Origin: an uncultured Bacteroidales bacterium
Lineage (GTDB): Bacteria > Bacteroidota > Bacteroidia > Bacteroidales > UBA932
Assembly (NCBI GenBank): GCA_900546395.1
Contig: URDD01000001.1
Span: 9,203 to 73,202 of the forward strand
Direction of reading: 5' to 3'
Length of the DNA stretch: 64,000 nucleotides
Shown piece after piece: positions 12,339-64,000 of this stretch (positions within the stretch are counted from its first letter, which is position 1; each line of letters opens with the position of its first letter). A program made the position numbers and the translations under genes. A model generated the notes under the pieces. It saw only the letters and a list, made by a program, of their open reading frames with translations, did no database searches and was not told where the DNA came from.

Positions 12339-12790
12339 GAACAGTTATACAGAGAGTCAGGAGCGCCTCTGTGGAAGTGCCGGAAAGCGGTTACATGGCA
12401 TCAATAGGAACTGGCCTGCTGCTTTTGTCTGCTTTTATAGAAGGAGATACTGAAGATGATTTGCGGTGGGTGGCAAGAAAGGTTGCAGCAATGAGGATAT
12501 TTGATGATACAGACGGCGTAATGAACCTTTCTGTCCGTGATATATGTGGTGATATATTGATTGTCAGTCAGTTTACGCTGTATGCTTCTACAGTCAGAGG
12601 TAACAGACCTTCATATATCAAGGCGGCTAAACCGGATATTTCGGTTCCGCTTTATGAAAGATTTTGTAAATTGGTGGCTGAAGAGCTTGGAAGGGAAATC
12701 AAGACAGGCGTCTTTGGAGCGGATATGAAAGTTTCACTTTTGAATGATGGTCCTGTAACAATATTGGTGGATTCAAAAATAAAAGAATAG
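12335..12790 (+). CDS. dtd: D-aminoacyl-tRNA deacylase
   Basis: MRTVIQRV...SQFTLYA...NDGPVT aligns along its length with E. coli Dtd. Confidence 0.9.
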   Translation: MRTVIQRVRSASVEVPESGYMASIGTGLLLLSAFIEGDTEDDLRWVARKVAAMRIFDDTDGVMNLSVRDICGDILIVSQFTLYASTVRGNRPSYIKAAKPDISVPLYERFCKLVAEELGREIKTGVFGADMKVSLLNDGPVTILVDSKIKE

Positions 12791-21055: not shown

Positions 21056-21343
21056 TTAGTTCCTTTTTTCCTTTACCCTTACCAACTTGTCTTTAAGGAT
21101 GTCGACGCAGTCAACAAGTGCATCTTCAAAAGTCTTGGCGTTACGCTCTATGACAACGTCATTTCCGGGAATCTGAACGTGAATTTTCACGTTTTTGTTT
21201 TCGTGTTCGGCGAGTAGCGAGAGAGCTACATCGACACCGATGATTTCGTCATAAAACTTTTCAAGTTTTGACACTTTTTTCTCTACGAAGTCAAGCAGCT
21301 TCTGGTCTGCGTTAAACTTGATGGATTGTACTCTAATCTCCAT
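21056..21343 (-). CDS. hpf: Ribosome hibernation promoting factor
   Basis: MEIRVQSIKFNADQKLLDFVEKKVSKLEKF...; 95 aa from the MEIRV start. Confidence 0.85.
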   Translation of the reverse strand: MEIRVQSIKFNADQKLLDFVEKKVSKLEKFYDEIIGVDVALSLLAEHENKNVKIHVQIPGNDVVIERNAKTFEDALVDCVDILKDKLVRVKEKRN

Positions 21344-22421
21344 GTTTACCTCCGCTTTTTGCCCTTGGGTGGGCATTAGTATAAACTTTTTTTAGTTTTG
21401 CGACAGAGTTGTGAGTGTATATCTGGGTTGCGGCCAATGAAGAGTGTCCCAAAAGTTCCTTGATGGAATTTATGTCAGCTCCCTCATTCAGCAGTTCCGT
21501 CGCCAATGTGTGCCTGAGGACATGGGGCGATTTTCGTGCAGTGAAGAGTCCTGTTTCTCCAAGTTCGCGCTTGACTGCCCTGTCAACATAAACGGGATAT
21601 AATGCTTTCCCGCTATAAGTCATCAGCAATGGCGAGTCAGTTCCGTGCATAATGCAACTTGTCGCATCAACTGTTTGTAAATATAGTGAAATTTCTTTAC
21701 AAAGAGACGTTATGACAGGAATTTCTCTTGTTTTATCACCTTTACCCCTTACTTTTATTTGTTGTCTGTGGAAATCAACAGATTCTCTTGTAAGAGAAAT
21801 AAGTTCGCCGCGTCGCATACCTGTTGAGTACAAAATGGAGACAATCAATCTGTCCAGTTTCTTAGTATATATCCATTCTGCAAATCTTTCCGGTTTGTCA
21901 GATATTTCATTCATTGTTGCCAGGACGGAATCTTTTTCTGTAGAATATCCTGGTTTCTCCTTGAATCTTAGATAAGCCTCAATAAACTCTCCAGGAGACA
22001 TTCCCTCTGTATATGATGCGAATATTTCGCTCTCTGACAAGTATTTCTCCATGCTGTCATGTCTGTAGAAAACAGGAAGATTTTTGTCAGTTTTCGGCCT
22101 TTTAACATTGCGGGCGGGGTTATACAATATGATTTTTTTTATCATAAGGTACCTGCAGAATCCGCTAAGGACGGAAATATGAAGGCAGACACTTTTCGGG
22201 TTTAACTTTTTCTTTTCAATCAGATATATTTCGTACCCGCGGACAGTGTCTGTGTTAAGGACATCATTGATATTATTTACAGAAATTTCCTCTCCTGACG
22301 TCCGGTGTATGTAAACAAAGTCGGAAAATGACTGCAGGACATTATAATAAATCTCCTGTGTCCTTTTGGAGTATCTCCGGACACTGGCTATATATTCAAT
22401 ATATGTTTCTATCAGAGTCAT
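21333..22421 (-). CDS. xerC: Tyrosine recombinase, XerC/XerD-like (chromosomal housekeeping type)
   Basis: C-terminal catalytic region HVLRHTLATELL...LLGHSSLAATQIYTH. Packed tightly between the cca and hpf genes. Confidence 0.75.
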   Translation of the reverse strand: MTLIETYIEYIASVRRYSKRTQEIYYNVLQSFSDFVYIHRTSGEEISVNNINDVLNTDTVRGYEIYLIEKKKLNPKSVCLHISVLSGFCRYLMIKKIILYNPARNVKRPKTDKNLPVFYRHDSMEKYLSESEIFASYTEGMSPGEFIEAYLRFKEKPGYSTEKDSVLATMNEISDKPERFAEWIYTKKLDRLIVSILYSTGMRRGELISLTRESVDFHRQQIKVRGKGDKTREIPVITSLCKEISLYLQTVDATSCIMHGTDSPLLMTYSGKALYPVYVDRAVKRELGETGLFTARKSPHVLRHTLATELLNEGADINSIKELLGHSSLAATQIYTHNSVAKLKKVYTNAHPRAKSGGKHGD

Positions 22422-49067: not shown

Positions 49068-50624
49068 TTATAACCAGTCTAGAGGCTGAAACCAAGTGAA
49101 CCACCGTCCCCATTCGCGTGGGGGATCACTATGGGCATAACAAAGAAATTGTTGTACTTCAGGTGAAACCTGACCTAGACCATCTCCACTCATTCCCGCA
49201 TTGATTATGCCTTTCCGGAGGTCGCCTTGTATAACGTCCCCTTTTGTGAACGTGATACCATCTATTGATTCCCAAATACGAATCCTGCTGTTGTCAGTAT
49301 TTCGTCTTTCAGCATGTATGGCAATGAATTTTTGGCTCTTCTGAATAAACTTGACATCCGTATGGTCTGGATTGAAGATGTCACTCTTATCGAGTGCAAT
49401 TCCTCTGTATTCAAGATGCATAGGCCAGTTTTCATCATTTGCTGAGGCTGTTGAAACTCGCGTTGTCGTACCTTGTCGATTCTGTTCTGCAACAAAATCA
49501 TTGTAAGAATAATATAGATAGACAATATCATCCTTAACAACTATACAAGGTTCTCCTGCACCGAAAACTTTACCTTCATATCCAGCTACTGGTTTGTAAT
49601 CAATTACCGGTTGCGGATTATCTCCCCATCTGTCACCGCTCCATTTTTCCCATGGTCCAACTGGTGTTTTGCTTCTTGCAATATAAAGGTCATTGTCATA
49701 GCCGTTAGGCTCTTCTGTTGATGTGTATGCTATGTAATACCATCCGCCCCATTTTGCGACTCCGGGGTCGCAGACAGAAAAAGCGTCTCGTTTCCCGTCT
49801 GAAGGGAGCAGGGCATCTGTTTCATCACTCCATGTCTTACCCCCGTCTTCTGAATGACGCCAAGTTATCTTGTCCCAAAAATAATTTCCGGATCCGTTGG
49901 ATGTAATGCGACAACGGAACTGTCCTTCAACAGGCTTTCCATCAATGAATGAGACAGCATTTGTGCTTGCTGAAGAGCCGTTTTCAAGAGATTTCCATAT
50001 TCCAGACTTGTCACTTCCTTCACTCATAACCCAAAGATAGCTTCCTGCCGGAAAAGTCTCTCTATAGTTTTCTTTTTCACTTCGGTAAATACTGAGCCAT
50101 GAATTGTCAGTATAGTCGGTGAATTTTTTCATTGCAATTGCATTACCGCTGATGCTGGTCGCATAATCAGTATCCCATTTGTAGATTTTTAGAGTGAAAC
50201 TTTCTGTGGAACTGCCCCAGGAGGGACATTGAAGTGATATGAATCCGAAATCCTCATTAGAAGTAAATTTCTGTGCAAAGATACTTGTTTTTCCAAGTTG
50301 GCAAGCAGACTGTGCATCTGATACTGGAATGTTTATGTTGTTCCCATAATAATCACCTGGTGTTGCAAGCCAAATGTCAATTGAGTTGTCTTCGTTAATG
50401 ATGATTGACGGACCATATCTGTAATTAGGTCCAGTATAAATATCCCACCCTTCCCGTGCTATAGGATAAACATCCTCCGACTCCTGTGGAATTGTATCTC
50501 CTATTGTCTTGTCCTCCAGCTCGCATCCTGTTGCAGCATATAAGACAGAAAAAGCCAGAATGACTACCTTGAAATTCTTAGTCAAATTGGTCATATTTAA
50601 ATCGTTTTTTAATTTACTTACCAT
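49068..50624 (-). CDS. BNR/Asp-box beta-propeller protein, probably a glycoside hydrolase (family undetermined)
   Basis: Lipoprotein-like signal ending ...AATGC and a canonical Asp-box SEDGGKTW. Last gene of the PUL. Confidence 0.45.
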   Translation of the reverse strand: MVSKLKNDLNMTNLTKNFKVVILAFSVLYAATGCELEDKTIGDTIPQESEDVYPIAREGWDIYTGPNYRYGPSIIINEDNSIDIWLATPGDYYGNNINIPVSDAQSACQLGKTSIFAQKFTSNEDFGFISLQCPSWGSSTESFTLKIYKWDTDYATSISGNAIAMKKFTDYTDNSWLSIYRSEKENYRETFPAGSYLWVMSEGSDKSGIWKSLENGSSASTNAVSFIDGKPVEGQFRCRITSNGSGNYFWDKITWRHSEDGGKTWSDETDALLPSDGKRDAFSVCDPGVAKWGGWYYIAYTSTEEPNGYDNDLYIARSKTPVGPWEKWSGDRWGDNPQPVIDYKPVAGYEGKVFGAGEPCIVVKDDIVYLYYSYNDFVAEQNRQGTTTRVSTASANDENWPMHLEYRGIALDKSDIFNPDHTDVKFIQKSQKFIAIHAERRNTDNSRIRIWESIDGITFTKGDVIQGDLRKGIINAGMSGDGLGQVSPEVQQFLCYAHSDPPREWGRWFTWFQPLDWL

Positions 50625-53600
50625 ATAGCTTGACAGAGATCTTACCTTGTTTTGGAGAGAAACTATATGTTTTGTCTCCCGAAGCCAAATGTTCGGTAAC
50701 AGTTACCTTCAGTTTTTCATTCAAAGTACGGAAGACCCTGATGTCAAAATCTGAACCGAATGCCCGGATATGTTTGAGGGACATCTCATTCCATCCTGAT
50801 GGTAAAGTGACGTTCATAGTAAAACTGCGCAATCCTGTCGGGCGAATGCCGAAAAGTCCTTCAGTTATGACTCTGCAATATAGGCCGCTTTCTGCTGACA
50901 GATGTCTCTGAGAACCTTCTGGCCAGGCTTCGACGGCATATGGAACATGGTCACCAAGAAGACGTCTCTGAGATAGACGATGAAGAATTTCAAGGGCCTT
51001 GTCTGTATTACCTGTATAAAATATACCTCTAAGTGCATATAGTGTGGCTCTATCCCAAAATACATCGCTTCCCTGTTCAGTGAGGCAGCCGTTTTCAGTC
51101 ATCAGTTCCGGCCCTGTTAATGCCGATGAAGTGCCAATGGCACGATTGTCAATTCCTGCAATAAGCGGCATACATATCCAAGAGCGTAGAAGTGTGTTAC
51201 CTTTGTAGTACCGGTATGTGTCATAGCCGGAGAGATTGCCTCCGAAATATTTTTCCATATTGGATGCCATTTCTTTTGCTCTTTGCATATATTCCTTAGT
51301 CACATAATGACATGCACCTATTTCATTTCCGAGATATGATGCCGAAATAAGGGCATCGTAATATAGTGTCGAAGTGCATAGGTTTGCATCACCGGACTCA
51401 AAGCGGTTCTCAAGTTCATCTGTGTCGGAGGCTACGACTCCAACTTCGTTGATTTTGCGGCGGCAAAATTCCAGACACCATTGAATCAGACGCCAAAGAT
51501 CTTTCCCTTCCTCTTTATTGCCTTGAGCGAGAGCATAGCGTGAGGCCCCGTATGCAATCATAGCGGCATCTCCTCTGTCTCCGCATCCGTCCCATATGTC
51601 GTCTCCTTCTGCAATTATGGAACTTGGAATCGGCCTGTATTCAGAATTCATAAAACGCGCAAAGTGTCGGAATGAATTAAGTGCCGATTCGGTTCCGTTG
51701 GCATTTCCGAGATAAGGAAAGAAAGGGTTTATATATTCGGCCTGGTCATTTGCCCAAACCGCTGCATAATAACTCTCTCCTCCGGGACTGTGCATCAGCC
51801 CTCCCTTTGTGCGGAAGATACTCTCTGTAGCCCGGATTTTGGACATGCGGAACATTTCATTTATTACTGAGTCGGGCGTTTCAAGAATGAGGTTAGCTCC
51901 AAGTCTGGACACAAATTTCTGACGTGCATGGAATTCGGTGTCTACATCTGGATGCAATGGGGATTCGGCAGGAATTTTCCGTGTCACAGGTTTTGAACCT
52001 GCGAGCAGAGGTGATGTTACTGTTCCGCCCTCACGATAAGCCTGATAGACAACAGTGAAACATCGTTCTGTTCCAGGTGCCATCCATGCTGTCCCGTCTC
52101 CGTGTATTTCAGCCCGTACAAGGTATTTCCCGTCTACACCGGCATAATAGTCGGTAGAGGCGCTCTGGCAAAACTCTGGTACTGTCACCAGGAGATTGTC
52201 TCCAGTAATATTTTTCAGGACAAACCTCTCATAGACTGCGGGGAGAGTGGTGGAAGGAAATATAGTGCGGGTCATTTGTATACAGGCTGTTTCTGCGGCA
52301 TCTGCACTGATGTTGATGTTGTCGTTGGCTTTTGACCAATAACTTGTCATTTCTACCATTCCGTTAATCTTTACACTTTTTGCCTGTTCCCGAATAAGAC
52401 TTCTTCCGTTTACGGCAAGAAGTGAAGGTATGTCTGTTGCAATACGGAAGTTCATAGACGCGTGAGTGTTATTTGGAATCATACGCAACATCGGAAAAAC
52501 GAGGGATTTTTCACTATGGAATGTACGGTCGGAATCAACGCCCCACCGAAGTACGCAAGATACCATTTCTCCACTCATCTCAATATGGTCTTCGTGCGGC
52601 AGCCCCTCGGACGTTTTCCAGAGTATACCGTTGCCATCTGTTCCTATAGTCCAACGCGTTTTCTTTTCCTCTTTTGCATCAGGTTGCAAACCGTAAAGTC
52701 TGTTGTTGTTTTCAGTTTTGTAGGTTGGCAGAGATGGATCTGAAATTTCAGCATCGACACTCTCTTTTGAGCCTCTCATTACATTCTGTTCTATGAAATC
52801 CACCTGTTTATTGACTGTTTGGGGCATATAGCCGGCAACAGCGTGATTGATTCCTGGGAAACGGTAGAATCTGCAACTTGTTCCGGCATCATTCAATGAT
52901 TTTTGAATCTGGCAGGGCCCGAAGAATGATGCAGTCTCAGATTTGATAATATCATAAGGCACTAGTTCGTCTTCACTGCCGTGGAACATCATTATAGGAC
53001 AAGGCATTTCAGCATAACAGAGTGCTCCATCAGCAATAACTGCTCCGGCAAATGCCATAATTCCTTTATAGTTGAATCCGGATGGAAGTACGGACGTCAT
53101 CAGGCTTCTGTTACAGATTTCCAATTCAGCCTGCTGTGCTGTGATTGCACCGGCAGAAGATCCTGACAAAATAAGATTGTCAGGATTGATACCTAAGGAT
53201 TTTCCGTTTTCTATGAGATAAACTGTTGCGGAAAACAAATCTTCTACAGCAATGTCGATTGCATTCTTCAGACGTCGGGCAAACTCTGAAATTGAAATAC
53301 CGAATACATTCTTGAGTCCCAGACGGTAGTCTATTGTTATCATCCGGTAGCCTTTTGCGTTCATTTCACGAAACCAAGGGCGGAGCCAGACTTCTTCTCT
53401 AGAGCCTTCTTTGAATCCGCCGCCGAATATATGGATTATGGTAGGACGTTGCTTGCCGTCTTTGCTAACTGACATCTCAGCATCCGGTTCATATATGTCC
53501 ATATACAATGAGCAAGTATCCCTGTCCGCATATTTCAGTGTAGTGTCCGGCTCCATTTTCTGTGCAAAAAGATGCGCTGACGAAAATATCGTCAGGAAAA

Positions 53601-53625
53601 CAATGATTAAATTTTTGGGGTTCAT
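50614..53625 (-). CDS. Two-domain enzyme: N-terminal alpha/beta-hydrolase carbohydrate esterase plus a large C-terminal glycoside-hydrolase-like (alpha/alpha)6-type region
   Basis: Oxyanion-hole motif HIFGGGF and nucleophile elbow GSSAG in the first ~300 aa. The C-terminal ~650 aa is Trp/Tyr-rich, resembling six-hairpin GHs; family not assignable. Signal peptide present. Confidence 0.5.
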   Translation of the reverse strand: MNPKNLIIVFLTIFSSAHLFAQKMEPDTTLKYADRDTCSLYMDIYEPDAEMSVSKDGKQRPTIIHIFGGGFKEGSREEVWLRPWFREMNAKGYRMITIDYRLGLKNVFGISISEFARRLKNAIDIAVEDLFSATVYLIENGKSLGINPDNLILSGSSAGAITAQQAELEICNRSLMTSVLPSGFNYKGIMAFAGAVIADGALCYAEMPCPIMMFHGSEDELVPYDIIKSETASFFGPCQIQKSLNDAGTSCRFYRFPGINHAVAGYMPQTVNKQVDFIEQNVMRGSKESVDAEISDPSLPTYKTENNNRLYGLQPDAKEEKKTRWTIGTDGNGILWKTSEGLPHEDHIEMSGEMVSCVLRWGVDSDRTFHSEKSLVFPMLRMIPNNTHASMNFRIATDIPSLLAVNGRSLIREQAKSVKINGMVEMTSYWSKANDNINISADAAETACIQMTRTIFPSTTLPAVYERFVLKNITGDNLLVTVPEFCQSASTDYYAGVDGKYLVRAEIHGDGTAWMAPGTERCFTVVYQAYREGGTVTSPLLAGSKPVTRKIPAESPLHPDVDTEFHARQKFVSRLGANLILETPDSVINEMFRMSKIRATESIFRTKGGLMHSPGGESYYAAVWANDQAEYINPFFPYLGNANGTESALNSFRHFARFMNSEYRPIPSSIIAEGDDIWDGCGDRGDAAMIAYGASRYALAQGNKEEGKDLWRLIQWCLEFCRRKINEVGVVASDTDELENRFESGDANLCTSTLYYDALISASYLGNEIGACHYVTKEYMQRAKEMASNMEKYFGGNLSGYDTYRYYKGNTLLRSWICMPLIAGIDNRAIGTSSALTGPELMTENGCLTEQGSDVFWDRATLYALRGIFYTGNTDKALEILHRLSQRRLLGDHVPYAVEAWPEGSQRHLSAESGLYCRVITEGLFGIRPTGLRSFTMNVTLPSGWNEMSLKHIRAFGSDFDIRVFRTLNEKLKVTVTEHLASGDKTYSFSPKQGKISVKLYGK

Positions 53626-53628
53626 AAA

Positions 53629-55476
53629 CTACCTCCTTTCAAAATACGGGTTAGGTGAATTCTTGACAATTAGTCCGGAATCGTCTTGGACATTCGGACA
53701 CTTGTGCAGACTGATTGTTGCATCGGACTTCCATTGGGAGAAATCATTGCCGGAAATTTTCACTTCACCGCAAGACTGAAGATCAATCACCGAAAGTCCT
53801 GGAAAAAGCGGTTTGTACGTTCCAGAGTCAATGAATTTGTTGTCAGAGATTTCCATTGATTTTACACTTCTTGCATATATGAGCTGACTGTCGAATGTAC
53901 TTATATAGTTGTTGCAGAAGACAACGTTGTTGTGGTAAAAGAAATCATTTCCTTTGACTGGAATTACGGGATCGACCATAAGGACGGGCATCGGTCCGTT
54001 TCCTCCTATGGCGAGGTCCTCAAAACGGTTGTTCCTTATAATAATATTCCGTGTCGGTCCGGATTCGTACCAGAAGTTTGCGTCTCCGCTTATGTTTATT
54101 CCTGACATCTGTGACATAAAGTTGCAATTTTCAACCACTACATCGCCCAAAGTAGAAAGCAGCAGGCTTCTGGCTCGGTTGTATCGTACAGTACAGCCAC
54201 GTATGATGGCTGAAGCATTGCAGGAGATATTCTCGATTGCAAGTCCCGAAGGTGCATCTGTTTCAGTAAGATTAAGGTCTGTTTCAATAATATAAGTTTT
54301 TCTGTCAGAGCGATCGATACTGACTAATTTCCCAACTCCAACAGGTTTGAGTGTCGATTTGTCAACAAACCGTATGATATCTCCAGGTTCGGCAAAATGG
54401 TTTCCTTCTTGCTGGAAATGGCCAAAGGAAGCCCGAACAATATAAGGCGAGACAAGTGTATCTGCCAGCATATAAATTCCGTGAATGTTGGTGGCGTCAT
54501 CAAGCATGCTCTCAAATTGACAATTTTCCAATGTAATCATACCTTTGCAATTTACAAAATGTGTAGCGTCGGCAGATGATGTTACCATCCTTGACGAATT
54601 TTTATGGGCGGCAGTAGAGAACTCCCTTACTTTAATGTCGGATGAGTATTCTGCTATAAGTGACATTCCTCCGCTACGATATACGTGTATTTGTTCCAAA
54701 GTGACATTTTTTGAACAAAGTACGGCTATTGCAGGATAGAGGCGGTTGAGTCTTGTAGGTCCTTTATCGTCCCAAATACTTCCTACCGGAGGTACATCCC
54801 GGGCACTTAGCCGGGTAAACTCGATGATACCCGGCTCAATTTCACGCGCCTTCATTTCTCCTGACCAATACCAGTGGTCATAAGCGGCAGTGTCATACCA
54901 CGGACGATGTGTAGAAGGATTGAATACGATGCTCTCCCCCATAGGATATTCCCAATCATAGCCGCTGAAAAGAAGGCGGTCGCCGTCTATTCTATATTTA
55001 TTGTCGGGAAATACCTTGACAATGAAACTTCTTTCTGCCGGATTATTGGACAAAACTTCAGCCTCGAAGGTCCATGGGTAATCATAATCTATAGATATCC
55101 CTTTGATTTCAATATTTTCAGATTCTTTCAGTGCGAATGGCATCATAGATCCATGAAACATAAAGTCAGTGTTTTCTCCGACTATACTAACATTTTTCAT
55201 ATTCTTAAGAAGGAACCCTACTCTTTTTTCGCCGCTGTCATTATTGGAGACATTAATAAATTTGACATCGGCTTTTTCAGGAAAGAAAGGATATGTACCA
55301 TTCCCGAAGCGAATTGTAACATTCCCCTTCGGGTGAGCTTTCAATATGTCTGTGACAATAGGAGTATAATCGGCCACTGATGCATCATACGTAATATCTA
55401 TAGTTGTATGGCATCCGGCAAGAAATGAACCGGCAATAACGGCAAGTGTCAGGTTCTTAAAGTATTTTACAATCAT
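53629..55476 (-). CDS. Right-handed parallel beta-helix (pectin-lyase-fold) protein, probable polysaccharide lyase or hydrolase
   Basis: Lipoprotein signal ...LAGCH. Repeated N/G-rich coil-like segments (IIRNNRFEDLAIGGNG, SGINISGDANFW) are typical of beta-helix repeats. Confidence 0.4.
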   Translation of the reverse strand: MIVKYFKNLTLAVIAGSFLAGCHTTIDITYDASVADYTPIVTDILKAHPKGNVTIRFGNGTYPFFPEKADVKFINVSNNDSGEKRVGFLLKNMKNVSIVGENTDFMFHGSMMPFALKESENIEIKGISIDYDYPWTFEAEVLSNNPAERSFIVKVFPDNKYRIDGDRLLFSGYDWEYPMGESIVFNPSTHRPWYDTAAYDHWYWSGEMKAREIEPGIIEFTRLSARDVPPVGSIWDDKGPTRLNRLYPAIAVLCSKNVTLEQIHVYRSGGMSLIAEYSSDIKVREFSTAAHKNSSRMVTSSADATHFVNCKGMITLENCQFESMLDDATNIHGIYMLADTLVSPYIVRASFGHFQQEGNHFAEPGDIIRFVDKSTLKPVGVGKLVSIDRSDRKTYIIETDLNLTETDAPSGLAIENISCNASAIIRGCTVRYNRARSLLLSTLGDVVVENCNFMSQMSGINISGDANFWYESGPTRNIIIRNNRFEDLAIGGNGPMPVLMVDPVIPVKGNDFFYHNNVVFCNNYISTFDSQLIYARSVKSMEISDNKFIDSGTYKPLFPGLSVIDLQSCGEVKISGNDFSQWKSDATISLHKCPNVQDDSGLIVKNSPNPYFERR

Positions 55477-56585
55477 ATCTGTTTTTTGAATTTAATCCAA
55501 CAATAAGCAATGTCTCTTATCCCATTGTTATCCTGATTGTGGGACCAGTATAGTTTTACATATTCACCGCCGACCAAATCGCCTTCAGAGCCTATGAGGT
55601 TCGGATACCAGGCAGGAAAATCGTTCCCCAGTATTTTCATTGGGGTATCCCACTTGATTCCGTCATTACTGAAAGAAATGTAGATGCTCTTGGTCCAGCT
55701 TCCATACACCATTACCCATTTTTCGAGAAACTTGTTCCACATTACAGACGGATTCGCTCCTGCTACACGGCGGAGGTTGGCGATTGCGACGTTTGGGCCT
55801 CCAAGTCCGGTTTGCGGATTGCGGGCTTCTAAAGTAAAGTCTTTGCCGTCCCACTTTTTCCAGGATCCCGGAGAACCTTTTCTGTCTTGTGACATAGCCA
55901 TGCAAAGAGCATTTGTACCAATGGTTGACTTGGCCTGATAGTAGCAGATGTAACGGGAATTCACATCATCCCATATGACACAGGCATCTCCAAGACCTCC
56001 CCATTCCGGTTCGGACGGTTTTGCCGTTTCGTCGGCAATAATTTGTTGAGGGTCGTGCCATGTCTCACCGAAATCGTCAGAATATACGACGCCTATTGAT
56101 TTGTAGGCAGTTCCGTCTCCTGGCCAATGGCTTTCCGCATGAAAAAAACCGACATAATGTCCTGTTTTGTCGAGTGGGAAAATACCTATAAACCACGATC
56201 CACCGTCATTGAATCCGTCAATACTTGAAAACTGCTTTCCCCATACCCTGCTTTCATCTGTAAGAAGAGAAATATGGTCTTCGGGAAATGGGGTCTTGGA
56301 TGTCGTGAGCGCATCAGTAGCTTCGCTCCAGAACAGCTGCCATTTCTGCTCTTTCTCTACCGGGATAAGCTTTCCGTCAGGCCAATAGTGGCGCATAAAT
56401 ATTCCTTCCGGTTGTTCGATAATCTGTGTGTCCCCTTTTGCGATAAACTCGTTTATATCTGTCCATTCGATATCTGGAACAGTTTCTGGAGTAACAGTGT
56501 CCAAATCGGATTCCTTATGACAAGAAAATGTAATCATTAAAGCAGGAACAGCTGCTATGATAGCTTTGTGATAACTTATTTCCAT
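55473..56585 (-). CDS. BNR/Asp-box beta-propeller protein (sialidase-like fold, family undetermined)
   Basis: Asp-box SDDFGETW and a lipoprotein signal ...ITFSC, 370 aa. ATGA overlap with the downstream beta-helix gene. Confidence 0.45.
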   Translation of the reverse strand: MEISYHKAIIAAVPALMITFSCHKESDLDTVTPETVPDIEWTDINEFIAKGDTQIIEQPEGIFMRHYWPDGKLIPVEKEQKWQLFWSEATDALTTSKTPFPEDHISLLTDESRVWGKQFSSIDGFNDGGSWFIGIFPLDKTGHYVGFFHAESHWPGDGTAYKSIGVVYSDDFGETWHDPQQIIADETAKPSEPEWGGLGDACVIWDDVNSRYICYYQAKSTIGTNALCMAMSQDRKGSPGSWKKWDGKDFTLEARNPQTGLGGPNVAIANLRRVAGANPSVMWNKFLEKWVMVYGSWTKSIYISFSNDGIKWDTPMKILGNDFPAWYPNLIGSEGDLVGGEYVKLYWSHNQDNNGIRDIAYCWIKFKKQI

Positions 56586-58225: not shown

Positions 58226-61200
58226 CTATTTGAATGAGATGTTCACTCCGAATGTAAAAGTTCTTGCGTGAGGGAAGTTGCCGTAGTCGAATCCTTGGGA
58301 AAGAATCGCAGAAGCGGAGTTCTGGCTTATTCCGACTTCCGGGTCATATCCGGAGTATTTTGTAAATGTGTAAATGTTGTCTGCCGAGACATAGAATTTG
58401 CACATATCTACATGTTTCGAGCGCCTGAGCAGTTTAGGGGGAAGCGAGTATGTCAGACGCGCAGTTGAAAACCTGAGAAAAGAGGCATCTTCAACATGAG
58501 CGGAAGATACTAGTTTCGTAGGAATCTGAGAATAGTAAAGTGGGTCATCAGTCTGATTGTCCAGACTCCATCTTTGCATCCAACGTCCTATCTGGTTCGA
58601 TCCGTCTCCTGTATAAGAGGCAGTCATTACGTAGTTTGCGTTATACATATCATTGCCGATCGAATATTGGAATCCGAGATATAGGTTGAAAGCTTTCCAG
58701 TTGAAAGTGCTTGAGAAAGCACCATATATGACAGGGAGAAAATTTCCTATAACTTCACGGTCTTTATCATCAATTTTTTTACTGCCATCTATATCTGCAA
58801 GTTTTATGGAACCTGGCTGTTCCCCTACTCCCTGGCTTGGTATGCCTGGTCTAAGGGTGTATATAGTGTTGCCCGTAGTCCCGATAGAAGCATCGAATTC
58901 ATCAATTTGGTAAATGCCGGCAGCTCTGTAGCCATAGAGTTCGCCTATGCTTCCTCCCTCGCGGAGAATAACAGCGCTTTGGTCATTAAGACAGCTGATG
59001 CCCAGATAGATAGGAGCTCCGCTTTGACCCAGTTTGAGAATTTTAGATTTGTTGTGTGTCATATTTACATCAAAACTCCATTGGAAATTCCTTTTGTCAA
59101 CAAGCAAGGTATTCAAAGATAATTCTATGCCTGAATTGCGGATACTGCCGATATTCTACCATGCTTTGGTATAGCCGGAAATATTGAGTACCGGAGCCTC
59201 AAGAAGAAGGTCTCGGGTAGTTTTGTTGTAGAGGTCGATGTCAATATGCAGTCTTTCATTCCACATTCCGAATTCTATTCCAAAGTTATATTCCAGAGTC
59301 TTTTCCCAGGAAAGGTTCTCATTGGCGAGAGTTACTGGTGATTGACCTATACTGACGTCAGTCCCGAATGCAGTATTTGTGTTGTACAGTTGGGAAAAAG
59401 AGCCGGCTGTAGGTACATTGGAGTTTCCTACTTCTCCGATTGAAGCCCTGAATTTAAGAGTGCTGATTGTACGGCTGTTTTCAAGGAAGGATTCCTGTTT
59501 GGCATTCCAGGCAAAAGCGCCTGAGTAGAATGATCCCCATTTATTTTTTACAAAAGCCGATGTCCCGTCCCGTCGGAAGGTAAATGTTGCAATATAGCGG
59601 TCATCATATGCATAATTTGTCCTGAAAATAAATGACATCATAGAGGCTTTGCCTGTAGATGAATATGAAGTGAAATTCTTAGCCATCTGGAGGTTGTTGT
59701 AGCCTAAGGTTTCATTGTCAAAGGCAGACGCCTCAGTGGAAGTGTAATAACTTCTGGAGCCCTGTTCCGTCAAACCACCCATAATGTTCAGACGATGTTT
59801 TTCAGCAAATGTAGGTGACCAGGTTAGAGTATTCTCGTTTATCCATCCGAAACTTGAGATGTTGGCCATACAAGCCTGGCCTTGGTATAATTGTCCTCTT
59901 GGAGTGCTTTTTGGATAATATTGCTTTTCCTCAAGAGAATAATTGTCAAATCCTCCTGTAATTTTGAGAACGAGATCAGGGATGATGGTGTACTGAATAT
60001 AGGAATTTGCAATGGTACGGCTGAGAATCTTCTTCATCTTGATATCGTTAGCCATTGTTACAGGATTTTGTTTGTTGGAGTTGATATGAGACTCGATTAC
60101 AGTTTCCGGCACACCGGCTCTACGGAAATATGTCTGTGTGTCTGTGTCTGTAAGGTCAAATGGTTGGGAAATGAGTGCATCCATTATAGTTCCTATTGCT
60201 GTCCCGTTTCCTCCGGATGTCGGTACTCCGTCATCGACAATGCGACTGTAATTCAGATCAACTCCGATTTTCAGATTGTCTGTGAAATTATGGTCAATAT
60301 TCACTTTTCCGGTGAGCTTGTTCCAATTGGTACAGATGATGATGGATTTGTTCTGCATATAAGATGCACTGACAAGGAAATTTGTTTTGTTATTGGAGTT
60401 CTGTAATGATAGATTATGGCTCTGGATAAATCCGGTACGGTAGATTTCATCCTGCCAGTCTTTTGCTTTTATCTTACTAAAGTCAAAATTCCGAAGATTT
60501 CCGTCAGTATCAGAGAAGAGAAGGTATGATGGGGTTTTTTCATTCATCATAGTGGCATATCCCTTAAAGTCAAGCATCTCAAGTTTTCTTGGAAGTTGTT
60601 GGAAACTGGCGTAGCCGCTGTACTGAATACGGCCTGAGGCTCCTCGTCCCTTCTTGGTTGTAATCATTATTACTCCGTTGGCGCCTCTGTTTCCGTATAT
60701 TGCTGTAGAGGAAGCATCTTTGAGGACTTCAATTGAAGCAATGTCCTCCGTGTTGATCATCGCCAGTGAACTCATTTGCGAATCCATTCCTGCCATACCC
60801 ATTCCAGAGGATGTGGAAACATCTCCTAGAGGAAAGCCGTCTACAACTATAAGAGGGGAAGTCGAGCCAGAAAGAGAGGCTGCTCCGCGGATGAGCATTT
60901 TGGAAGCAGCACCTGGCTGGCCGCTGGTAGCTGAGACCATAAGACCTGCAACGCCTCCCTTTAGGGCATCATCTACAGAAAACATAACTTTATTCTCAAG
61001 TCTTTCCGGATTTATAGATGCCACACTTCCTGTCAAGTCCTGTCTTCTGGCAGTTCCATATCCGATTACGACTGAATTTTCGAGAATCTCGGAATCCGGG
61101 TCTAGTATGAAATCCAGAACCGTCTTTCCGTTAATTGGAATTTGCTTGTCTTGATATCCGATAAAAGATGCAGTCAGGATTGACTCTCGTGATTTGACTT

Positions 61201-61384
61201 GGATTGTGTATTTTCCGTCATCATCAGTTGTCGCTCCATTGGTCGTCCCTTTCTCATATATATTTGTCCAAGGAATCGGATTTCCTTGACTGTCTGTTAC
61301 CTTTCCGGTAATTGTTATTTGCTGAGCAAAAGTAAGGGTTCCCACTGATGCCCATAGCATCAGTGAGACAATAAAGTTTTTCAT
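58226..61384 (-). pseudogene. susC: SusC/RagA-family TonB-dependent transporter interrupted by one in-frame TAG at 59156-59158. The upstream part (742 codons) and downstream part (296 codons) are in the same frame.
   Basis: N-terminus shows a signal peptide, a CarboxypepD_reg region (ITITGKVTDSQGNPIPWTNI) and a TonB box/plug (VVIGYGTARRQDLTGSV). Translation across the stop reads ...GYTKAW*NIGSIRNSGIELSLNTLLVDKRNF... and continues to a typical C-terminal barrel ending ...GVNISFK. Confidence 0.6.
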
Positions 61385-61399
61385 AAGTGTTTTTATTAG

Positions 61400-62749
61400 T
61401 TAGTCTTCAATTTCGTCTATCCTGAAATTGTCCAGATAAAAAGTCGCGTCATAACCATTGCACCTTACAGAAATAAAGCAATTCCTGAATACGTGTCCGT
61501 TCTCATATCCTTCGACATTGAGTGTAAATTCATCAGACAGAGTCTGCCACTCACTTTTAATGAGATTTGTGAAATGGAGATCGCTGAAGTCCTCCTTCGT
61601 TGCTTCAAGTTTTGTATATCGGAACTCATGCAAGGTCTTGTCTCCACTTGTCTGTGATACATAGTCCTCAGGATAATAGTCTTTCCAGCTTTCAGCAGTA
61701 TAAAGATCTCTTAACGGATCATACAGGCCTTCTGGCGGTGTGCAGCAATAAATCCAGGCTATTTCCATAACGGCTCCAAGTTCTCCCTTGTTCATTTCCC
61801 CGATGGACGGAATCTCTTTCAGAATCTCGACATTTTCTATGGTAGGGGCAGATGCTTTTATGTCAAATGACATTTTATATTTTTTACCAACTTCCATAGA
61901 AGCATTGTTGCTCCAGTTGTTTCGTGGAAAAAGATCAATGAATCCATGTAAAGACTCTTGTCCGGCGATTGGCATATATGTATATGCGGAAGCATCTATC
62001 CTAATGCTTTTGGAGGAATTGCAGCCTCCGTCGACAATTACGGCTTTTGATGGCTGATCCCCGTCTTTGGCATAGCAGATATATGCATTTCGAGCGTCGT
62101 TACCCTCAAAACCAAATACGTCAAACCCGAAATCAGTGTCTTTTTTCAGAAGTGGATAATTGCCGGCAATTATAGACGTTTCTACAATTTTTTTTGCACC
62201 GTCGCTTGCGCGTGTGATCTCACAGGTGATCTTGACGTCATCGATTTGGCTGTTCCACGTAACTTTTGGAGAAACCTCTGTTGAAGTGGCTGGTGTACCA
62301 CCTTGGAATGTCCAGCTATATGATGTTGGATTCCCGATGACATTCTCAAGAGAAAAAGTAATTTCCGAGCCATTCTTAGCGCAACCTTTCGGTGTAAGAC
62401 CTGTAGTTTTTATGTCAGCTGACAGATTCTCGAGAACATTTACCTTTATGTCAGCCTGTTCCTGTGATCCGTCTTTGAATTTGACAACAAGTTTAACGCT
62501 CTTTTCTCCGCTCCCTGTGAAAACGACATCAACAATGGCGGACGTAGAGGTTGAAGGTTCGCCGTCCTCAAAAGTCCATTCACGGGAAGAAACTCCCAAA
62601 GAAAGATCTTCAAATTTTACACTTTGCCCGGATATAGCCTCATTCGGAGCTTTGTACGTAAATTCCTTTATTGTTTCCTCTGTCTGTTTGTTGCAAGAAA
62701 ACACAAGGAAAAGACAGCCTAAAGCAGCTGCAGTAAAAAATCTTTTCAT
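61400..62749 (-). CDS. Surface lipoprotein with two PKD-like domains (first gene of the PUL structural operon)
   Basis: Lipoprotein signal MKRFFTAAALGCLFLVFSC. Two repeats carry the W-x-F-x-D/G-G motif (SSREWTFEDGEPST; SYSWTFQGGTPATS). Confidence 0.5.
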   Translation of the reverse strand: MKRFFTAAALGCLFLVFSCNKQTEETIKEFTYKAPNEAISGQSVKFEDLSLGVSSREWTFEDGEPSTSTSAIVDVVFTGSGEKSVKLVVKFKDGSQEQADIKVNVLENLSADIKTTGLTPKGCAKNGSEITFSLENVIGNPTSYSWTFQGGTPATSTEVSPKVTWNSQIDDVKITCEITRASDGAKKIVETSIIAGNYPLLKKDTDFGFDVFGFEGNDARNAYICYAKDGDQPSKAVIVDGGCNSSKSIRIDASAYTYMPIAGQESLHGFIDLFPRNNWSNNASMEVGKKYKMSFDIKASAPTIENVEILKEIPSIGEMNKGELGAVMEIAWIYCCTPPEGLYDPLRDLYTAESWKDYYPEDYVSQTSGDKTLHEFRYTKLEATKEDFSDLHFTNLIKSEWQTLSDEFTLNVEGYENGHVFRNCFISVRCNGYDATFYLDNFRIDEIED

Positions 62750-62868: not shown

Positions 62869-64000
62869 TTAGCAATTTTCAAAAAAACTACTTTTGTACT
62901 TTTTCGGATGGATGCCGAACTCAGCAGCAAAAATTTTGGAAAAATAGGATATGTTGTTGAATCCGACAGCGTACATAACTTCAGTTATAGTCAATCCGGA
63001 ATCGGAGCAAAGAAGCTGCGCGGCCCTTTTAAGACGAATGCTGCGAAGGAATTGAATGGCAGACATTCCGGTTATTGACTTGATTTTTCTGTAGAGCTGA
63101 GGACGTGAATAACCTATACTCTGGCACAAATCATCGACCCCGTAATCAGGATCAGAGATATGTTCTTCTATGTTGTCAATGCAGTTGCGTATGAATTTCT
63201 CATCAACCGGTGTAGCTGTTATAGCTGATGGTTCCAGTTTTATGTCAGTACGGAATGACTGCCTGATACATTTGCGTTGTCGTATAAGATTCTCGATTCT
63301 GGAAATCAAAAGTTCTGCATGGAATGGTTTTGTTATATAATCATCGGCCATCATCTGGTATCCCTCCATTTTATATACAGGAAGATCCCGTGCGGAAATG
63401 AGAATGACGGGAATATGGGATGTCACTTTGTTTTCCTTGATTTTCTGACAAAGTTCAAGACCGTTCATTTTAGGCATTACGATGTCGCTCAGAACGATGT
63501 CGGGCTGTTCGGAAATTGTATCTTCGTAACCCTTGGAACCATCTTCTGCTGTAATTGTATTGTATCGGGTGGAAAGAAGTTGAACCAGATATTCGCGGAG
63601 TTCGGAATTGTCATCAACAATCAGTACCAGATGCTCTCGTTCAGGACCTCCTGTTCCTGTCGAATTGTAAGTTTTGAACTCTGCGACAGGGTCGTAATTT
63701 GAAATATGGTCGCTGTTCTCATAGTTTTTGTCGATATCCGATGAGGAGAACTGGGAGCATCCGTATGGCAGAAAAACAAAGAATGAGGTCAGTCCTCCAG
63801 GTACAGACTCCGCCCAGATTTGCCCTGAGTGAGATAGTACAGCAGACTGGCTGATTGAAAGGCCTATACCCATTCCTCCTCTGCTGTTGTTCTTGCCTTG
63901 ACGGAATCTGTCGAAAATATACGGCAGATCCTCCGGAAGAATTCCTATTCCGATGTTCGATACCTTGAATTCTACTCCATTCCGTCCGTCTTTATCTGTT
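62869..64000 (-). CDS. Hybrid two-component system sensor kinase/response regulator, C-terminal portion only (HATPase end, REC, AraC-type HTH). The gene continues beyond the window.
   Basis: REC domain LVLIVDDNSELREYL...DIVLSDIVMPKMNGLEL and an AraC HTH (GYSRPQLYRKIKSITGMSAIQFLRSIRLKRAAQLL). The frame is open to the window edge. Confidence 0.75.
   Translation of the reverse strand, partial: TDKDGRNGVEFKVSNIGIGILPEDLPYIFDRFRQGKNNSRGGMGIGLSISQSAVLSHSGQIWAESVPGGLTSFFVFLPYGCSQFSSSDIDKNYENSDHISNYDPVAEFKTYNSTGTGGPEREHLVLIVDDNSELREYLVQLLSTRYNTITAEDGSKGYEDTISEQPDIVLSDIVMPKMNGLELCQKIKENKVTSHIPVILISARDLPVYKMEGYQMMADDYITKPFHAELLISRIENLIRQRKCIRQSFRTDIKLEPSAITATPVDEKFIRNCIDNIEEHISDPDYGVDDLCQSIGYSRPQLYRKIKSITGMSAIQFLRSIRLKRAAQLLCSDSGLTITEVMYAVGFNNISYFSKIFAAEFGIHPKKYKSSFFENC

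Follow-up and report, generated by a model that had tools for sequence, protein, structure and literature searches.

The window analysed here, a 64-kb stretch of DNA, contains a polysaccharide utilisation locus (PUL) in which the gene for a SusC/RagA-family TonB-dependent transporter is split by an amber codon, at a position where related genes carry a glutamine codon. We consider it probable that a recent nonsense mutation, Q743*, has disabled the SusC of this PUL. The presence of the stop, the ancestral codon, the recency of the change, its reproducibility across assemblies and the use of TAG as a regular terminator in the window are all shown by the sequence comparisons, and they are presented below together with the predicted consequences for the protein and the locus.

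Table 1. Coordinates of the interrupted susC gene, its parts and the surrounding PUL genes (positions in the window).
Feature	Position	Strand	Remarks
Full-length frame of SusC/RagA-family TonB-dependent transporter, interrupted at codon 743	58226..61384	-	1052 codons
Premature amber codon TAG, codon 743	59158..59156	-	ancestral CAG (Gln)
N-terminal ORF, 742 aa	59156..61384	-	signal peptide, carboxypeptidase-regulatory-like domain, plug, ~15 of 22 barrel strands
309 open codons 3' of the stop	59155..58226	-	barrel strands ~16-22 and C-terminal strand
Hybrid two-component system (HTCS) regulator, C-terminal part	62869..64000	-	1302 aa in public records; runs off the window
PKD-domain protein	61400..62749	-	449 aa in public records; directly upstream of SusC
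SusD-family partner lipoprotein, 541 aa	56576..58201	-	intact; Pfam SusD_RagB, SusD-like_3
370-aa protein, function unknown	55473..56585	-	weak sub-threshold DUF4185 / sialidase-like matches
GH110-family alpha-1,3-galactosidase, 615 aa	53629..55476	-	PDB 9beh, 9i4f; Pfam
1003-aa protein	50614..53625	-	N-terminal carboxylesterase (BD-FAE/COesterase) domain and large C-terminal domain
518-aa protein, function unknown	49068..50624	-	last gene of the same-strand cluster

An in-frame TAG within a SusC/RagA gene

The SusC frame starts with an ATG at 61384 and ends at its natural TAG stop at 58228..58226. Around the internal stop the minus strand reads GGC TAT ACC AAA GCA TGG TAG AAT ATC GGC AGT ATC CGC AAT, and the codons that follow are TCA GGC ATA GAA TTA TCT TTG (minus strand, within 59260..59050). 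Translation across the stop gives GYTKAW*NIGSIRN, and the longer read of 59260..59050 on the same strand is GYTKAW*NIGSIRNSGIELSL. An earlier note on this DNA had described a single in-frame TAG that splits SusC at 59150-59165; translation confirms this and fixes the codon itself (Table 1). The change at codon 743 is C>T on the coding strand, corresponding to G>A on the plus strand at 59158. The same note had the downstream ORF start 13 codons past the stop, which is correct, but at an ATG, whereas the start codon of this 296-aa ORF (58226..59116) is a TTG at 59116. The first ATG past the stop lies 31 codons downstream, at 59062, which is where a 278-aa fragment starts in public gene calls.

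The earlier claim that the sequence beyond the stop is a continuation of the same SusC barrel is borne out by profile searches. In the NCBIfam SusC/RagA model TIGR04056 (981 positions, cut-off 368.25 bits), the N-terminal ORF aligns with positions 1-703 (586.5 bits) and the C-terminal remainder with positions 706-981 (206.4 bits), while an intact allele from the same species (P0001) covers positions 1-981 with 809.7 bits. Since the two ORFs match consecutive parts of one SusC/RagA model, their continuity reflects homology and not chance. The TIGR04057 SusC/RagA signature (cut-off 46.2 bits) is found at residues 214-244 with 62-64 bits, Pfam identifies CarboxypepD_reg and Plug domains (Plug E-value 6.6e-19), and the homologues of known structure include the SusC protein 8aa4 (6e-129) and RagA, 6sli (5e-86).

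The family model, the plug signature and the adjoining gene for a SusD-family lipoprotein within a PUL all point to the same family, but an uninterrupted 22-strand barrel complete with its C-terminal strand is not encoded by this copy, in which the stop falls at about strand 16 of 22. The gene is a SusC/RagA member by descent, but not an intact coding sequence. When compared with SusC/RagA transporters from PULs of Bacteroidota (the levan SusCD BT1762/1763, PDB 6ZAZ/5T3R; 8AA4; and P. gingivalis RagA, 6SLI), it resembles them in its N-terminal carboxypeptidase-regulatory-like domain, plug and 22-strand barrel, and its locus resembles theirs in the adjoining SusD gene, the HTCS regulator and the glycoside hydrolase genes. 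In contrast to these systems, the present copy has a stop at codon 743, and its SusC gene is preceded by a PKD-domain gene. An AlphaFold model of the intact allele displays 22 long strands after the plug, of which residues 741-763 form approximately the 16th (mean pLDDT 65, moderate); the C-terminal strand consists of residues 1041-1051, and F1051 is nearly invariant.

The surroundings of the stop contain no repeats, inverted repeats, homopolymers or simple-sequence tracts. Programmed switching at the stop was considered and rejected, given a site without repeats and promoter and terminator scans that remained at background level.

Ancestral codon and age of the change

A search with the read-through protein identified an intact protein of 1052 aa (P0001, see above) that is 100% identical except at residue 743, which is Gln. 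The comparison with orthologues suggested in the earlier note was carried out at both the DNA and the protein level. Among 29 loci fetched, the site motif was found in 24 (2 from the same species and 22 from other species, with 73-88% protein identity), and the codon at the site is CAG in every one of them. Gln occupies this column in 117 of 119 homologues, down to ~50% identity, and the site is located within the invariant motif W-Q-N-x-G-x-x-x-N-x-G-x-E. A scan of GTDB species representatives gave 27 loci, the closest of which have 87-88% protein identity and none of which is conspecific; these relatives are uncultured gut Bacteroidales MAGs, among them Candidatus Cryptobacteroides.

CAG is also present in conspecific contigs from four other samples (ERZ1740196, ERZ27313364, ERZ1740097 and Logan SRR8114115), whose identity to the window is 99.8-99.9% over 6.5-11.8 kb and which encode the intact 1052-aa protein P0001. 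In the four conspecific contigs as well as in the 24 loci, the interrupted gene is thus matched by a sense codon that is one nucleotide away from a stop, as expected for a nonsense pseudogene. The presence of CAG both in related loci and in conspecific contigs indicates a single C>T transition that gave rise to Q743*. TAG at this site was found neither in the 24 loci and 119 homologues nor in two scans of JGI metagenomes, one with the exact 47-nt context allowing C or T at the site and one with the codon-degenerate pattern K-A-W-TAG-N-I-G-S-I-R-N; both scans were empty. No split version of the transporter exists among the more than 119 homologues, and the others of comparable length are all intact.

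The SusC gene of the window differs from those of the conspecific CAG contigs only by the stop and at two synonymous sites. With just two synonymous changes besides the stop, and no secondary decay, the event is recent. When 26 variants were polarised with outgroups, ~3-5 non-synonymous and 3-4 synonymous changes could be assigned unambiguously to the lineage of the window; these are too few for a conclusion on relaxed selection acting on the whole PUL.

Reproducibility, alternative explanations and consequences

The window corresponds to positions 12368..76367 of a 114,109-base scaffold in ENA (ERZ28619411, PETE17-1_SAMN04329779_METAG-scaffold_91), which carries the TAG as well and on which the genes are called as 742 and 278 aa. 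The same pair of calls is found on contig k141_103204 (32,329 b) of a separate MEGAHIT-style assembly, ERZ27290398, which likewise carries the TAG; a second contig of this assembly, k141_69058, shows 100% identity with the window across 13,877 b. The same haplotype is found on the Logan contig of SRR2992899, possibly the run from which ERZ28619411 and ERZ27290398 were assembled. Cluster look-ups placed the 742-aa and 278-aa products on 3 contigs from NCBI and ENA, while look-ups of the exact products (the 742-aa and 278-aa proteins and the PKD and esterase proteins of the window) returned no record. Thus, T is found at the site in three assemblies. Apart from one 6-site patch that is private to the window, these are mutually identical over 14-23 kb, which makes it most likely that they derive from one sample, probably SAMN04329779. 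That different assemblies reproduce the TAG argues against an assembler artefact. The earlier note had proposed to take a sense codon in the orthologues as the mark of a base-call error; this does not follow, since the orthologues do have CAG, yet the TAG is present in two other public assemblies of the same strain, which speaks for a real mutation. Judged from these sequence comparisons, the TAG is likely to be a real mutation rather than an error in the consensus.

The opposing explanation is that the organism has CAG, and that a base was miscalled in a metagenome of low coverage and then passed on to all assemblies built from one set of reads. The TAG assemblies may indeed share a read set, as they are mutually identical (0 differences in 13.9 kb; only the 6-site patch in 23 kb), and the conspecific contigs from other samples have a coverage of just 3.8-6.7x according to their names. 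Furthermore, a patch of six transversions at 51443-51526 in the window, absent from public records, suggests that local errors exist in this sequence. This patch, however, is private to the window's version and the TAG is not. T is present in all three assemblies, at least one of which was produced by a different assembler (MEGAHIT k141 naming), the other ORFs that were checked in the 64-kb window show no apparent disruption, and substitution errors are rare in short-read consensus sequences. A consensus error therefore seems unlikely. The alternative that the TAG is real but is read as Gln by a chromosomal or phage suppressor tRNA(CUA), so that full-length wild-type SusC is made, would leave the strain with a functional SusC, and would provide a case of a chromosomal gene dependent on, or rescued by, amber suppression in gut Bacteroidales. 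The ancestral residue is the one that is inserted in known TAG-to-Gln recodings, and the downstream frame is fully open and undamaged; but CAG>TAG is also the likeliest one-step route to TAG, and because it requires a single C>T change, the identity of the residue is expected by chance and lends no weight to recoding. The genetic code 15 (TAG-to-Gln) phages of Bacteroidales, which encode a suppressor tRNA(CUA), are alike in the TAG and the expected Gln, but the present case differs from them in that it involves a bacterial chromosome, a regular terminator, a single internal TAG and a window devoid of a suppressor tRNA. In this window, TAG serves as a regular terminator: the 53 non-overlapping likely genes end in TAA (24), TGA (15) or TAG (14, including the premature one), so that 13 other likely genes are terminated by TAG. 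The natural end of SusC is among these, and the product length at this terminator agrees with that of the closest full-length homologues (1052 aa). The window does not display the pattern of a recoded genome, in which TAG would be rare as a terminator and common within genes. Read-through of TAG would also fuse SusC with SusD, GH110 with the esterase, and PheT with its neighbour, in frame and with no further stop in between. The only tRNAs encoded in the 64-kb window are tRNA-Leu(CAG) and tRNA-Arg(TCT), with no tRNA(CUA) among them, no other gene of the window has an internal TAG, and a TAG at this site is absent from the loci, homologues and JGI scans described above. Decoding of the amber codon as Gln is thus very improbable, be it constitutive, by a suppressor tRNA encoded elsewhere in the genome, or conditional, by that of a TAG-recoded phage. 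The ranking in the earlier note of a recent mutation or an error above suppression agrees with the ancestral CAG, the recency of the change and the use of TAG as a terminator.

If, as we think, the TAG is a recent nonsense mutation, it would have arisen by a spontaneous C>T change that converted the conserved Gln-743 codon from CAG to TAG in one strain of an uncultured gut Bacteroidales species. Translation would then end at the start of approximately the 16th of 22 barrel strands, leaving a product of 742 residues. Outer-membrane barrels need their C-terminal strand for BAM-dependent insertion. With this strand and the last ~7 strands missing, a closed barrel cannot form, and the product would presumably be degraded. 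The downstream ORF of 278-296 codons, if translated at all, would remain in the cytoplasm; its sequence includes no signal peptide, and a piece made separately should thus be unable to reach the outer membrane. That the N-terminal 742 residues and a C-terminal fragment translated on its own nevertheless assemble into one barrel, as a transporter in two pieces, is hardly conceivable. Both pieces are undamaged, and possible starts exist 13 (TTG) and 31 (ATG) codons past the stop; however, a C-terminal piece without a signal peptide has no means of crossing the inner membrane, the 13-31 residues between the stop and the restart, which include the invariant N-x-G...N-x-G-x-E motif, would be missing, and the homologues mentioned above offer no precedent for a split form. 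Following the nonsense mutation, the SusC/SusD import step would be lost or reduced to the trace level allowed by read-through, and expression of the downstream susD and enzyme genes might be lowered by polarity. The allele is most likely a null allele. Near-cognate misreading by tRNA-Gln inserts Gln, and basal misreading of UAG in this manner could yield trace amounts of wild-type protein; the allele could therefore be slightly leaky, although not functional.

A real mutation might in addition be adaptive, with loss of SusC selected in the host, e.g., as an escape from a phage or colicin-like toxin that uses it as a receptor, or as a cost saving when the alpha-galactosylated substrate is absent. 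In Bacteroides fragilis, SusC/SusD-family genes are enriched among those that evolve in parallel within individual persons (PMC9393564), and are thus among the known targets of this process. As in other strain-level nonsense pseudogenes and in the within-host evolution of SusC/SusD, one nucleotide in an importer separates near-identical strains, and the allele is the consensus in its sample, i.e. at least common in that population. The cases in gut Bacteroides differ, though, since here there is one event in one sample, which does not amount to parallelism or demonstrate selection: no parallel hits at this gene occur in other strains. Moreover, the pressure reported for B. fragilis favours altered forms of the protein and not specifically its loss, and a segregating nonsense mutation that is neutral or mildly deleterious fits the data equally well. 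An adaptive origin is for these reasons rather doubtful.

The gene is most likely an ordinary strain-specific pseudogene, and public records already show it as two separate gene calls. For annotation, the two ORFs are best joined and marked as a single disrupted SusC gene, and a functional copy of this PUL should not be attributed to the strain. A real mutation would be a minor instance of how strains of a gut Bacteroidales species vary in glycan uptake; the disruption of SusC has no bearing on any open mechanistic question.

Gene content of the locus and other features of the window

The locus is a typical PUL, with the whole cluster on the minus strand (Table 1). The part of the HTCS regulator that lies in the window contains Response_reg and HTH_AraC domains, and the full-length public call contains Y_Y_Y, HATPase_c and Response_reg. 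The SusD gene is located 24 nt downstream of SusC in the same frame, and its protein is identical in conspecific contigs. The GH110 gene matches GH110A (PDB 9beh) at 2e-84 and an alpha-1,3-galactosidase (9i4f) at 7e-70, and displays the GLAA-B beta-barrel and Beta_helix domains of Pfam. Members of the GH110 family act on alpha-galactosyl epitopes, e.g., structures of the blood-group B type. As the PUL encodes such an alpha-1,3-galactosidase, its predicted target is probably an alpha-galactosylated glycan; GH110 suggests alpha-1,3-galactosylated targets, for instance alpha-Gal epitopes, epitopes resembling blood group B, or galactans from algae or plants.

The genes for the PKD-domain protein, SusC and SusD share one reading frame, with a single stop and a short spacer between neighbours. 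The homologues in the database include one PKD-SusC fusion product (P0092, 1465 aa), which represents either a real fusion or a lost stop codon. The C-terminal region (~670 aa) of the 1003-aa protein, for which there is no Pfam family, occurs as a stand-alone "hypothetical protein" in Alistipes (58% identity), where it is very common and found on hundreds of contigs.

It is within this 1003-aa gene (53625..50614, minus strand) that the six-site patch is located. Between the window and the two public versions of the scaffold there are six differences within 84 bp (codons 700-728), at positions 51443, 51467, 51491, 51499, 51506 and 51526, and none elsewhere in 23 kb. All six are complementary-base transversions, and five are non-synonymous (A707G, E709D, P712R, Y720F and D728V), affecting residues of the 1003-aa protein that show little or no variation among 120 homologues. 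Mutagenesis of the DGR type was rejected, as no template-like repeat was found in the window. The patch is probably a local artefact of the window's version, or else a hypermutated stretch, and it is unrelated to the TAG, which is shared by all versions.

Elsewhere, the window encodes housekeeping functions, including PheT, FtsY, Era, RluB, a topoisomerase subunit and sulfate-assimilation genes. As an explanation, general decay of the assembly was rejected: the overlapping pairs of ORFs at 27.6-29.9 kb and at 42.6-44.2 kb represent separate, intact genes and not frameshifts. A tyrosine-recombinase gene of the phage-integrase family (21333-22421, minus strand) adjoins the gene for a ribosome hibernation factor. 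The window and one further contig (L039) have an intact copy (362 aa), but in a conspecific contig (L041, 11153-12231) the gene is split into 262 and 96 aa, which is a further strain-level disruption within the same species. In four other ENA assemblies (L043-L046), the gene order of positions 1-20400 of the window is shared and the DNA is only ~95% identical, suggesting that a sister lineage close to the species boundary is frequent in this data collection.
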